A stretch of DNA of 64,000 bases. It comes from a virus. Taxonomy: Duplodnaviria; Heunggongvirae; Uroviricota; Caudoviricetes. This document shows positions 1,553-59,789 of the stretch, piece after piece. Below the pieces are notes generated by a model. The model did no database searches, was not told the DNA's origin, and worked only from the letters and a program-made list of their open reading frames with translations. The stretch lies in IMG/VR virus record IMGVR_UViG_2880372215_000004. One strand, given 5' to 3'. The position numbers and the translations under genes were made by a program. The first letter of the stretch is position 1, and each line of letters begins with the position of its first letter.

Positions 1553-1753
1553 TCACGAGGACTGAAGTTTCTCGCAATTAAAATTTATCAGTTTTACTTT
1601 CTGCTCTCTGGAAACGCCTGCTTCTTTTTTACCTGAGAGCATTTTTTCGCATTCTGATTTCGTTAGTTTAGATTTTGAATATCTTGTCCAGTTAGTAGGA
1701 GTGCCACCTTCCTTTTCAATAGTGGCGGTAATTTTATACATGAACACCTCCAT
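1553..1753 (-). CDS. ydaC: Rac prophage protein YdaC-like
   Basis: MEVFMYKITATIEKEGGTPTNWTRYSKSKLTKSECEKM... recalled as K-12 YdaC, in the syntenic position between xis and ralR. Start uncertain. Confidence 0.6.
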   Translation of the reverse strand: MEVFMYKITATIEKEGGTPTNWTRYSKSKLTKSECEKMLSGKKEAGVSREQKVKLINFNCEKLQSS

Positions 1754-5837: not shown

Positions 5838-6008
5838 TTAAAGTTCATGTGCCATCTGGTCTTTTTCGGCACAAGCTTCACTGCAATATTTTCTCGGTTC
5901 GTCTTTTGATAAAATCCCGTGCATGAAGTGAAGCATTCTTTCAATAGCTTTGCTTTCTTCAACGTCTTTTTTGCAAAGGTGGTAAGCACATTTTATTTTC
6001 TTAGTCAT
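5838..6008 (-). CDS. ydaE: Cys-rich small protein YdaE, 56 aa
   Basis: Hand translation gives [56 protein letters not shown]. Below the track size cut-off. Its start overlaps the kilR stop (TGATG). Confidence 0.65.
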   Translation of the reverse strand: MTKKIKCAYHLCKKDVEESKAIERMLHFMHGILSKDEPRKYCSEACAEKDQMAHEL

Positions 6009-6229
6009 CACCATGACTCCGCCTTTACAGGTAAACCATCACGACCGAGGAAGACTTTAATCATGCGGTCAGTAATGCATGTTTTTGTGGTCAGGTTACG
6101 AATATATAGTTTTCGCTTTTTAATATTGTTTGCCGAGGCAATATATGTCCGGCCTTCATGAAGAACATAATCGCCAGGAGTCACACACTGACGTGGTATT
6201 TCATCAGTTCCGAAGTGATGTGCAATCAT
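6008..6229 (-). CDS. kilR: FtsZ-inhibiting killing protein KilR, 73 aa
   Basis: [55 protein letters not shown] matches K-12 KilR from memory. Start at Met5 of the tracked ORF. Confidence 0.85.
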
Positions 6230-6404
6230 AATTATCTCCATTTTTACAAATGAACTTTGTTGATGCGGTGCCTGGTGCCTCCAGGTGACTGCAACCAGTT
6301 AACAATTACAGTCGGCTTTCCCACCCAAACCAATAAGGACTAACATGACTTTTAACTGTGCCACGTGCGCTTAGCCGCATTCACCGCATCACAAAATTCA
6401 CTTT

Positions 6405-6470
6405 AAAAAGGGCGGACATCAGCCGAACTTCAAGAAAAAAACTGATGCCGCCAGGACTACACACAGCAAT
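6405..6470 (-). ncRNA. DicF-like sRNA paralogue (diverged 5' part, conserved terminator hairpin)
   Basis: The minus-strand RNA reads ...GGCGGCAUCAGUUUUUUUCUUGAAGUUCGGCUGAUGUCCGCCCUUUUU, an 11-bp stem plus a U-run. The flanks 6265-6412 are homologous to the dicF-dicB spacer of prophage 2 (59590-59742). The element sits upstream of kilR exactly as dicF sits upstream of dicB. Confidence 0.4.
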
Positions 6471-6670
6471 GTCGTTATTTACAACCGGAGGCGCACTCCC
6501 ACCATTTAAATTTAACAGACAAGACCGACTCTTTATGGATATCGGAAATGCGCCTTCGTGTTGTGCCCGGTTTTATTTCACCACCTCCGGGCTTCGGTGG
6601 TCTCGGCTATACCCCTACAGCGAGAGCTTGTGTTAACATTTCAATACCCTTACAGTTGAGAGTTATTGAT

Positions 6671-7159
6671 ATGTTGGATGTATTTACTCCATTGTTGAAA
6701 CTTTTTGCTAACGAGCCACTCGAAAGACTTATGTATACGATTATCATTTTTGGTCTCACTCTCTGGCTGATACCGAAAGAGTTTACTGTCGCATTCAATG
6801 CTTATACTGAAATACCTTGGCTCTTTCAGATTATCGTTTTTGCCTTTTCTTTCGTGGTCGCCATTTCCTTCTCAAGATTGCGAGCACATATTCAAAAGCA
6901 TTATTCATTACTACCAGAGCAACGAGTATTGCTTCGTTTATCTGAGAAAGAAATCGCTGTATTTAAAGATTTCCTTAAAACAGGAAATCTTATTATCACT
7001 TCTCCTTGCCGTAACCCGGTTATGAAAAAATTAGAACGGAAGGGCATCATTCAACATCAGAGTGATAGCGCAAACTGTTCTTATTATCTCGTCACCGAAA
7101 AATACTCCCATTTTATGAAGTTATTCTGGAACAGCAGGAGTAGACGTTTTAATCGTTAG
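6671..7159 (+). CDS. sieB: Superinfection exclusion protein SieB, 162 aa
   Basis: MLDVFTPLLKLFANEPLERLMYTIIIFGLTLWLIPKEF... matches Rac SieB from memory. Start at the internal ATG of the tracked ORF. Confidence 0.85.
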   Translation: MLDVFTPLLKLFANEPLERLMYTIIIFGLTLWLIPKEFTVAFNAYTEIPWLFQIIVFAFSFVVAISFSRLRAHIQKHYSLLPEQRVLLRLSEKEIAVFKDFLKTGNLIITSPCRNPVMKKLERKGIIQHQSDSANCSYYLVTEKYSHFMKLFWNSRSRRFNR

Positions 7160-7743: not shown

Positions 7744-8163
7744 TTAAGAGGCTTTTTGTTTTTTCTTTCGTGCTAACTCTTCGTAAATTGCATTGTACTT
7801 CTGTTTTTTCTCCTCAAGAGTTTTTAAAAGTTCATCTGTCTCACTGTCAGGGAGCTCGTCCAGAAGGTCAATGATGATTTTTTGTCTTGGATTTAACTCC
7901 TGATAGAAACGTATCTGTCCACTTTCTTCTGTATCCTCTCCCAAAAGATAGGTTGGTGTTGTTCCAATGAGTGTTGCTAATTCCCTTAATTTCTCTCGGC
8001 GAGGAATTGTTTCACCATTAAACCATTTGCTAACCGCTTTTGGTGTTAATTTCATTCGACGGGCAATTTCTGCCTGCCTTCCATGTTGTTCATAACCAGC
8101 GTTTTCACAGGCTAGCGCAAGCCTACTGGCGAACTCTTTACGCGCTTTATCTTCATGAACCAT
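7744..8163 (-). CDS. Prophage repressor, HTH XRE family (RacR/CI-like), 139 aa
   Basis: HTH segment GRQAEIARRMKLTPKAVSKWFNGETIP. Divergent from a cro-like gene. No S24 peptidase domain. Confidence 0.8.
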   Translation of the reverse strand: MVHEDKARKEFASRLALACENAGYEQHGRQAEIARRMKLTPKAVSKWFNGETIPRREKLRELATLIGTTPTYLLGEDTEESGQIRFYQELNPRQKIIIDLLDELPDSETDELLKTLEEKKQKYNAIYEELARKKKQKAS

Positions 8164-19096: not shown

Positions 19097-19172
19097 GGCC
19101 CTTTAGCTCAGTGGTGAGAGCGAGCGACTCATAATCGCCAGGTCGCTGGTTCAAATCCAGCAAGGGCCACCA
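19097..19172 (+). tRNA. ileZ: tRNA with CAU anticodon, ileX/ileZ-like (Ile2, or Met)
   Basis: 76-nt cloverleaf GGCCCTT...AAGGGCCACCA with anticodon loop CTCATAA. Closely resembles E. coli ileX and the Stx-phage ileZ from memory. Confidence 0.85.
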
Positions 19173-19272
19173 TCACAAACCGCCATTAGCTTATCAGGAA
19201 GAGCAGACGACACCATAACAGGGTTGTTGGTGCGGGGGCGGGTCCCCGATGGCGGTCCATTATCGGTATTCT

Positions 19273-19349
19273 GCGTTGTTAGCTCAGCCGGACAGAGCAA
19301 TTGCCTTCTAAGCAATCGGTCAGTGGTTCGACTCCACTACAACGCGCCA
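19273..19349 (+). tRNA. tRNA-Arg (UCU), reads rare AGA/AGG codons
   Basis: 77-nt cloverleaf: acceptor GCGTTGT/ACAACGC, anticodon arm ATTGC-CTTCTAA-GCAAT, T arm AGTGG-TTCGACT-CCACT, 3' GCCA. Confidence 0.85.
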
Positions 19350-20114: not shown

Positions 20115-20281
20115 TTTTTTTGTTTGCTGTTTATTAAAAACACTTCTGCATGGTGAATCCCCCTGTGCGGAGGGGCGATCAGCAACCAGGTATATGGGAT
20201 AATCGCGGATTCAGGTGCTGATACTGAATTCACCGGGAGGCACCCGGCACCATGCAAGAAAAAGAATGTGCATGCAAACAT

Positions 20282-20306
20282 GCCCCTCTCCGGAGGGGCT
20301 TTTTTA
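20282..20306 (+). terminator. Rho-independent terminator
   Basis: GCCCCTC-TCCG-GAGGGGC followed by TTTTTTAT. Confidence 0.6.
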
Positions 20307-20524
20307 TGGGTAAAAAATGCCCGAATGGGTTCGGGCAATAGCATGAGATACTGATATTGTTGTGTTGTTATCGTGTGGATTTTAACCAGGGTTTATCAGG
20401 CTGCGCAACTGCGTGGCCTTTTTTCATTTCTTGGGCTGTAGTCCCCGAGTGTCATTCAGGCTTCCGGACTACAGCCAGCCCACTCCATATCTGATTTAAT
20501 ACACTATCCCGGCCGGGAGGAATA

Positions 20525-59378: not shown

Positions 59379-59563
59379 TGACGTTCTCCGAAAATACCAA
59401 GTTCAAGAAGAGCAATTCGGGAAAGTATGGAATTATCATTGAGCAGATAAGGCTCATATTTCCTCATGTTAATGGCATCTTCAGTAAACTCCCGGTTACT
59501 GAGCAGAACACCAATATCAAAACAACCTTCAGACGTATTAACGTTTGGTAATAACGTTTCCAT
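59375..59563 (-). CDS. dicB: Cell-division inhibitor DicB, 62 aa
   Basis: METLLPNVNTSEGCFDIGVLLSNREFTEDAINMRK. The N-terminal 30 aa closely match K-12 DicB from memory. Start at the internal Met of the tracked ORF. Confidence 0.8.
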   Translation of the reverse strand: METLLPNVNTSEGCFDIGVLLSNREFTEDAINMRKYEPYLLNDNSILSRIALLELGIFGERQ

Positions 59564-59731
59564 TATCGCGTCCTCAACAATGAATTTTGTGATGCAGTGC
59601 CTGGTGCCTCCAGGTGACGTTAACCAGTTAACAATTAACGCCGGATACAGAGAATCCACCCATAACACTGTTTTTGGTTTTAACTGTTCCGCGTGCGCTT
59701 AGCCGCATTCACCGCATCACAAAATTCACTT

Positions 59732-59789
59732 TAAAAAGGGCGGCAGAGCAGCCACGGAGTAAAACTGATACCGCCAAACGTCACCAGAA
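59732..59789 (-). ncRNA. dicF: DicF sRNA
   Basis: The minus strand reads TTTCTGGTGACGTTTGGCGGTATCAGTTTTACTCCGTGGCTGCTCTGCCGCCCTTTTT. This is nearly identical to K-12 DicF from memory, and it is followed by the conserved spacer and dicB. Confidence 0.85.

Follow-up and report, generated by a model that had tools for sequence, protein, structure and literature searches.

The kilR–sieB locus

The DNA analyzed is a stretch of 64,000 nucleotides from a virus of the Caudoviricetes (IMG/VR record IMGVR_UViG_2880372215_000004), which is called the window in the following. On the minus strand, positions 6000–6900 are the kilR–sieB region of a Rac prophage. The kilR–sieB stretch is 99.8–100% identical to E. 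coli K-12, and 6405–6640 features 100% identity to MG1655-type strains, the window coordinate being the K-12 coordinate minus 1412000 (Table 1). The element between the two genes is KilS, a published Hfq-dependent small RNA (sRNA) of the Rac prophage, and, hence, is already known: b4833 and the element share the same locus and the same sequence without any difference. Downstream of KilS lie kilR and then ydaE, racC, and recE, and sieB starts on the other strand at 6671; these flanks match the K-12 locus between kilR and sieB. By its annotation, KilS ends with the last U of its DicF-like terminator. The range 6245–6470, in which the original prediction had placed a second, diverged DicF-like element with a new seed, omits the 5′ 32 nt of the annotated transcript.

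KilS was predicted from Hfq RIL-seq as 'sieB.kilR.IGR' and confirmed by northern blot (Bar, Argaman, Altuvia, and Margalit 2021, PMC8175672). In K-12, the RNA is seen in the wild type, is gone in delta-hfq, and builds up in stationary phase; RNA-seq backs its size, and the authors considered it to have a promoter of its own (PMC8175672). The transcription start site (TSS) is located at 1418502 (window 6502; Supplementary Table 6), inside the kilR leader, and KilS was classed as a kilR 5′ UTR (PMC8175672). The RNA is scarce—with low sRNA scores and a few hundred chimeras—and features yncL as one reproducible RIL-seq partner, with three interactions recorded in all (PMC8175672). DicF and RprA are not mentioned in Bar et al. 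2021, and no mechanism beyond the RIL-seq link to yncL is assigned there (PMC8175672). The sRNA with a DicF-type 3′ scaffold ahead of kilR that had been proposed from the sequence, hence, exists as annotated KilS—as judged by northern blot, TSS, and RIL-seq—and the stable transcript on which the proposal depended is the northern-detected, Hfq-dependent RNA of K-12 (PMC8175672).

RefSeq records of the same sequence other than MG1655 carry no ncRNA feature at KilS, and Rfam contains no KilS family, which is why the element looked unannotated; at gathering thresholds, only the true DicF is found among the dicF-type elements. In addition, the kilR/sieB region has no entry in the supplements of Tree 2014 or Adams 2021.

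The window carries further RNA elements above the Rfam thresholds (Table 1). The presence of AgvB and of a second prophage with dicF points to an EHEC-like strain and not to K-12. EHEC reportedly carries several dicF copies. That part of the original prediction agrees with Balasubramanian et al. 2016 (PMC5069750), and AgvB is known from prophages of E. coli O157 (Tree et al. 2014). The ORF in the position of the repressor (7744–8163, minus strand) comprises 139 aa (MVHEDKARKEF...) compared with the 158-aa racR of K-12; because it is shorter, the Rac immunity region may differ here from K-12 although the kilR–KilS–sieB segment is identical.

Table 1. Coordinates of the KilS locus and of further RNA elements in the window
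Feature	Position in window	Strand	Basis and remarks
kilR (FtsZ inhibitor)	6008–6229	−	ORF list and RefSeq annotation; downstream gene of KilS
kilR Shine–Dalgarno GGAG	6236–6239	−	
Structured spacer/kilR leader	6248–6404	−	Fold and consensus structure
DicF-type intrinsic terminator	6405–6452 (hairpin 6411–6452, CUUUUU 6405–6410)	−	Alignment, DicF model match, fold
KilS sRNA, 98 nt, b4833	6405–6502 (K-12 1418405–1418502)	−	RefSeq NC_000913.3 ncRNA kilS
RprA-homologous segment AAAUAACGACAUUGCUGUGUGUAGUC (KilS nt 23–48)	6455–6480	−	Local alignment to K-12 rprA nt 51–75
RNase E cleavage site in KilS	6471 (K-12 1418471)	−	Bar et al. 2021, Supplementary Table 6 (PMC8175672), data of Clarke et al. 2014
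KilS 5′ hairpin GGGAG-UGCGC-CUCC	6487–6500	−	Read from the sequence; GGGAG/CUCC arms complementary
Putative extended −10 TGtTAAATT	6509–6517	−	Read from the sequence, inferred; ends 6 nt upstream of the TSS (G, 6502)
RalA antitoxin	1557–1735	+	Above Rfam threshold, 225 bits
Two tRNAs	19097–19346	+	Above Rfam threshold
AgvB (anti-GcvB sRNA), convergent with STnc100	20312–20373	−	Above Rfam threshold, 96.5 bits

The DicF-type terminator

The 3′ part of KilS is a hairpin plus U-run in the minus sense that parallels the DicF terminator, as had been noted originally, and the two can be aligned base for base. The hairpin arms are GGCGGCAUCAG...CUGAUGUCCGCC. Together with the U-tail, the KilS hairpin folds at −19.5 kcal/mol compared with −15.9 kcal/mol for the DicF hairpin, and the hairpins of KilS variants with their U-tails all fold at −10 to −24 kcal/mol. 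A terminator scan gave no call at the KilS hairpin, the loop of which is longer than the 8-nt limit of the scan.

The true DicF of the window belongs to the second prophage (59738–59789, minus strand) and reaches 75 bits with the Rfam DicF model (RF00039). The same model matches KilS at 6410–6465 (minus strand) with 39.1 bits (E = 5e-7 in a 601-nt search) at a cut-off of 48. The signal at KilS comes wholly from the hairpin, and the 14 seed positions remain unmatched: the DicF seed UUUCUGGUGAC(G/A)UUU is not present, and KilS carries UGUGUGUAGUCC at those positions. This result is intermediate—above the noise level and under the gathering score. The designation as a second DicF-like element, hence, is appropriate for the terminator/spacer module, of which KilS has a relative, and is not appropriate for the DicF family, below whose threshold the element stays. 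KilS is not a DicF family member but shares the DicF 3′ module.

The alignment of the KilS and dicF regions spans 297 columns with a mean column identity of 81%. Within it, 6245–6404 aligns with the dicF–dicB spacer of prophage 2 in long identical blocks, which bears out the proposed spacer homology, and the 5′ parts are indeed unlike each other (GCUGUGUGUAGUCCU in KilS versus UUUCUGGUGACGUUU in DicF). Common to both RNAs are the homologous Rho-independent terminator (GGCGG...CCGCCCUUUUU), the same structured spacer downstream, the same place in a lambdoid early-left operon, immediately ahead of a small gene for a division inhibitor, and an RNase E site where the seed begins or close to it. 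KilS thus features the DicF-type arrangement of a GGCGG...CCGCC terminator hairpin, a U-run, a conserved spacer, and a small inhibitor gene. The two RNAs differ in their seeds, which are entirely different, in the hairpin, which is longer and more stable in KilS, and in the score of KilS under the Rfam DicF cut-off. In addition, transcription of KilS starts at a TSS of its own, whereas DicF arises by processing of the ydfABC–dicF–dicB transcript. According to the title of Faubladier et al. 1990, as cited in PMC5069750, DicF is made by termination and RNase III/E processing.

The structured spacer

The spacer between KilS and kilR is predicted to form a 20-bp outer helix, in which 6382–6404 pairs with 6248–6270. 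This helix encloses the hairpins 6364–6378, 6289–6311, and 6271–6285 and a hypervariable middle. The fold of 6230–6480 has a z of −4.6. In 75 unique spacers, the consensus structure features nearly all standard pairs and almost no unpaired cells; seven pairs change on both sides. The outer helix accounts for three of these, with U-A to C-G and A-U to G-C among them. The 3′ arm ends approximately 9 nt before the kilR Shine–Dalgarno sequence. Exactly two copies of AAAGTGAATTTTGTGATGCGGTG, the first 23 nt of the spacer, are present in the window (6382–6404 and 59710–59732, both minus strand), and none in shuffled sequence. A helix this long is consistent with RNase III cleavage, which is reported as part of DicF maturation and may be inferred for KilS.

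On the STnc100 model (RF02076, cut-off 47), the region after KilS (6222–6408, minus strand) scores 35.5 bits, the region after DicF (59531–59740, minus strand) 34.7 bits, and the region after a third seed (L072:5217–5440, minus strand) 34.0 bits; the true STnc100 of the window (20119–20311, plus strand) scores 145.8 bits. Because approximately 34–35 bits are reached after all three seeds, the spacer appears to be a distant relative of STnc100/PasD, which points to a larger family of structured leader RNAs in phages. The spacer and the true STnc100 at 20119–20311 have the outer helix and a CACCNGGAGGCACCNGGCACC hairpin in common.

Without KilS, the spacer occurs at 74–82% identity in the P1-like phages D6 and P7 (H87/H88) and in Klebsiella phage Kp4865-4 (H89); a sequence labeled Actinobacillus phage vB_Apl-pPE4 (H71) also falls into this range. 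Given these matches in other phages, the structured leader is more widespread than is apparent from the exact pattern in Escherichia and Shigella. A put-type antiterminator as in HK022 was considered for the spacer and rejected: the spacer lies downstream of the terminator that needs suppression, and no put sequence was found for comparison.

The RprA-like core

The seed region of KilS resembles the host sRNA RprA. Of the 26 positions at 6455–6480, 24 are identical to RprA nt 51–75. The local alignment scores 40, compared with a mean of 12 (sd 2.1, maximum 24) in 2000 shuffles, and, hence, lies approximately 13 sd above. The 16-nt block at 6455–6470 (AUUGCUGUGUGUAGUC) is identical to RprA nt 60–75—the exact 16-mer being unique in the window—and corresponds to anti-site Ib. 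It is preceded by AAAYAACGA, so that KilS features the RprA-type core, which coincides with the part of the Rfam RprA consensus that is most conserved (written in upper case). Sequence comparison thus identifies the single-stranded middle of KilS as homologous to RprA nt 51–75, including anti-site Ib. Of the originally proposed new seed, the difference from DicF holds; the seed itself is not new, being the conserved RprA core.

By the Rfam RprA model (RF00034), which matches 6431–6542 (minus strand) with 28.1 bits (E = 0.41, cut-off 70), KilS is not an RprA family member but shares the RprA core. The alignment features no similarity 5′ of RprA nt 50; the RprA 5′ stem-loop and the central nt 28–45 (anti-site II) are not found in KilS. 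KilS also lacks anti-site Ia and, 5′ of the shared core, most of RprA's central segment, and the terminators are unrelated. In K-12, rprA is located at 1770372–1770477 between ydiK and ydiL, whereas KilS lies in the Rac prophage. The two RNAs have in common the whole anti-site Ib, the dependence on Hfq, and the accumulation in stationary phase.

The likeness extends to processing. The RNase E site at 6471 is the C just before AUUGCUG, and RprA nt 60 is the A of AUUGCUG; as the site precedes the same motif, KilS and RprA are cut at homologous positions. The KilS cut is no more than 1 nt away from where, by homology, RprA(60–105) begins, and would give a short form of 66–67 nt starting with (C)AUUGCUGUGUGUAGUC. 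The short forms of both RNAs, hence, begin at or within 1 nt of AUUGCUGUGUGUAGUC and continue into a terminator. By sequence and text searches, no prior mention of the RprA–KilS similarity was found in searchable papers, and none of these papers describes the RprA core, the matching RNase E site, or a multi-seed chassis; an earlier report of a dicF-like Rac sequence is possible.

The published KilS northern probe 2 (30-mer, AGGACTACACACAGCAATGTCGTTATTTAC) covers 6453–6482 (minus strand), that is, the stretch with 24 of 26 positions identical to RprA (L002:273–378). RprA is 105–106 nt long, Hfq-dependent, and abundant in stationary phase, so that cross-hybridization with the 98-nt KilS band is possible. 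The other of the two published probes (probe 1, terminator loop), RNA-seq coverage, TSS, and RIL-seq reads argue that KilS is real despite this overlap. In general, KilS and RprA could be mistaken for each other wherever oligonucleotide probes or mapped reads fall in the shared core.

The 5′ region and the control of kilR

A consensus promoter scan reported no promoter for KilS, and no good −35 was seen. The motifs GTTAAAT/GTTAGAT and TTGTC are kept in diverged KilS variants. Positions 6487–6500, which could form the 5′ hairpin of Table 1, are paired differently in the minimum free energy fold of full-length KilS, namely within a longer 5′ structure, and diverged variants carry an alternative stem, CGACCG/CGGUUG, at the place of this hairpin.

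Further upstream, ACAACACGAARGCGC is located at 6550–6564 (minus strand), 48–62 nt upstream of the KilS TSS. It is nearly invariant in diverged Rac-like prophages: leaving aside the R position, 11 columns in a row do not vary. A regulator could bind here and act on either the KilS promoter or the divergent promoter of sieB.

Between the KilS terminator and kilR, the consensus scan found no promoter-like site. Expression of kilR by read-through was reported when NusG is lowered (Barshishat et al. 2018). The KilS terminator may, hence, function as a cis attenuator, such that only read-through transcripts would reach kilR. The 20-bp helix of the spacer is a likely RNase III site that would split the sRNA from the kilR mRNA, as reported for DicF/dicB.

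Distribution and seed classes

Of 5426 complete E. coli genomes, 1844 carry KilS-type sequence, and KilS occurs at 100% identity in the induced Escherichia phages vB_EcoS-666R9 and vB_EcoS-613R10. In an exact scan with one genome per species, the chassis—that is, terminator plus spacer—was found only in Escherichia and Shigella and in a few evidently mis-binned MAG contigs. Across 31 KilS variants, the core is the most conserved part, with 13 of 18 columns invariant and an identity of 0.92, values that are inflated and partly circular, as a 10-nt core motif was used to class the variants and was also part of the pattern with which half of them were collected. None of the 24 columns far upstream and none of the 19 in the terminator loop is invariant, the mean pairwise identity being 0.60 and 0.53, respectively. 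The stem is kept by paired substitutions, for example, GGCGGCAUCAG/CUGAUGUCCGCC versus GGCGGAUAUCAG/CUGAUAUCCGCC.

Loci gathered by the terminator-plus-spacer pattern alone fall into three discrete seed classes without intermediates: DicF (UUUCUGGUGA), KilS/RprA-like, and a third class (CCAUGUUGAUUACC or CCAUGUUGAUUGGUACC). DicF seeds lie mostly before dicB and also before kilR. KilS seeds lie mostly before kilR and also before dicB, a 94-aa ORF, and a 135–141-aa ORF. The third seed is found before dicB, kilR, or the 135–141-aa ORF type (133 aa in that locus). As seeds and downstream genes combine variously, terminator and spacer can be regarded as a chassis with exchangeable seeds, and the comparison of these sequences points to at least three seed types carried by the DicF-type chassis.

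The third seed class is located at L072:5438–5488 (minus strand) and also in the IMG/VR loci L052, L088, L115, and L045. It reads CAACAACCCAUGUUGAUUACCUUUU-GGCGG, with CCAUGUUGAUUGGUACC as a variant, and the seed sequence is CCAUGUUGAUUACCUUUU. Apart from sub-threshold DicF (34.1 bits) and STnc100, no Rfam family matches this class. The third seed shares UUGAUUGGU with the 5′ end of OmrA/B, which may be chance.

The closest published parallel is the group of AgvB, AsxR, and EcOnc03. These lambdoid-prophage sRNAs feature a conserved 3′ scaffold of approximately 42 nt, variable 5′ seeds of 14–18 nt, and a fixed moron position (Tree et al. 2014). The DicF-type chassis has the same architecture but belongs to the early-left operon, whereas AgvB, AsxR, and EcOnc03 sit downstream of PR′ in the late region. 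In addition, the seeds of these sRNAs imitate mRNA targets and thereby sponge core sRNAs, whereas the seed of KilS apparently copies the seed of a core sRNA itself. KilS may be a chimera, in which a lambdoid phage mounted the host RprA core with its RNase E site onto the DicF chassis—a seed-swappable cassette of Escherichia lambdoid prophages with at least three seed types, which would recombine freely with dicB, kilR, and two other ORF types. Rac-type prophages would thereby gain an RprA-like handle on csgD/dgcM, and with it on curli and biofilm, in the short transcription unit that also gates KilR. This proposal is tentative, its odds being put slightly below even. As far as checked, neither the chimeric reading nor the seed-swapping chassis has been described.

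Predicted pairing with csgD, dgcM, and yncL

KilS is an orphan sRNA, for which the RprA match and the RNase E site give a specific and quickly checkable target hypothesis. Anti-site Ib of RprA pairs with site Ib of csgD, as judged by compensatory mutations at csgD CAGC(−90 to −87) (Mika et al. 2012, PMC3465796). The RprA mutation used there relieves the control of ydaM (dgcM), which a compensatory change in ydaM restores (PMC3465796). The processed RprA(60–105) alone lowers csgD mRNA, and anti-sites Ia and II contribute redundantly to csgD repression (PMC3465796).

In duplex predictions, KilS forms 16 contiguous pairs with csgD −98 to −83 (ACUACACACAGCAGUG) at −27.2 kcal/mol, compared with 15 contiguous pairs at −24.6 kcal/mol for RprA and csgD site Ib. 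The common KilS variant CACUGCUGUGUGUAGU (CACUGCUG...) forms 16 pairs with site Ib, all Watson–Crick, at −29.5 kcal/mol. Predictions with full-length molecules gave whole-molecule duplexes and, hence, are meaningless. Against the whole csgD 5′ UTR, the KilS seed has a z of −3.9, and 0 of 300 shuffles are as good. For the core of KilS and yncL, a 10-bp match was found, the energy of which is no better than that of shuffled seeds. Under the growth conditions of the KilS RIL-seq experiments, csgD is expected to be poorly expressed. It is not among the RIL-seq partners of KilS, of which the three interactions mentioned above are the only ones recorded (PMC8175672).

KilS is predicted to be an RprA-like repressor of csgD and, at the same time, a terminating leader of kilR. 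Full-length KilS, and especially the 66–67-nt form with AUUGCUGUGUGUAGUC at its 5′ end, would pair with the csgD mRNA at −98 to −83. Pairing with dgcM is probable too. KilS would thus repress the curli/biofilm regulator csgD in the manner of RprA, and yncL is a possible further trans target of the core. The explanation that joins both sides—an sRNA with RprA-type csgD/dgcM pairing in trans that also is a cis attenuator of kilR—is given a probability of roughly 70%.

Rival readings

KilS could instead be purely a cis leader, in which the hairpin silences the toxic kilR and the 98-nt RNA is a by-product without trans targets. The RprA-like stretch would then have a role in cis, for example, as an entry site for RNase E or Hfq, and indeed coincides with the RNase E site in both RNAs. 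The class of kilR 5′ UTR, the absence of a promoter-like site between terminator and kilR, the dependence of kilR expression on read-through and NusG, and the very few RIL-seq interactions of KilS all fit such a leader. However, KilS is stabilized by Hfq and forms chimeras with yncL on Hfq, and drift has affected its flanks and terminator loop, but its core is conserved. In addition, the seed position of the same chassis holds elsewhere the seed of DicF, which is proven to act in trans, and it is improbable that 16 nt complementary to a validated RprA target site arose by coincidence. Cis and trans roles are not mutually exclusive, and the exclusively cis-acting reading is considered unlikely.

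If KilS does act on csgD in trans, it could still do so as an antagonist of RprA—by occupying site Ib or competing for Hfq and thereby shielding csgD from RprA, or by titrating a csgD 'trap'. KilS bears only anti-site Ib without anti-site II, which binds the ribosome site; single-site lesions do not relieve repression, and csgD mRNA may trap RprA (Mika et al., PMC3465796); and prophage sRNAs that interfere with core sRNAs are known (AgvB and AsxR; Tree et al. 2014). Yet RprA(60–105), which also lacks anti-site II, still lowers csgD mRNA (PMC3465796), and KilS has the same sense as RprA and, hence, cannot pair with RprA itself, so that antagonism appears distinctly improbable. Finally, the homologous terminator, the same operon position ahead of a division inhibitor, and the local E of 5e-7 on the DicF model would suit a genuine DicF paralogue that represses ftsZ and other DicF targets and adds division inhibition at the RNA level to that of KilR. 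The odds of this reading are very small: the model score of 39.1 bits stays under the gathering threshold of 48 with 14 mismatched seed positions, and the KilS seed against ftsZ −80 to +60 (z = −0.2) is no better than shuffles in a crude test that also missed the known DicF–ftsZ pairing.

Implications

Phage sRNAs may diversify via a fixed terminator–leader chassis with exchangeable seeds—one of which apparently derives from a core-genome sRNA. If this is true, Rac-like prophages, which are carried by approximately one-third of the complete E. coli genomes, would couple the control of biofilm formation and division arrest in one leader.
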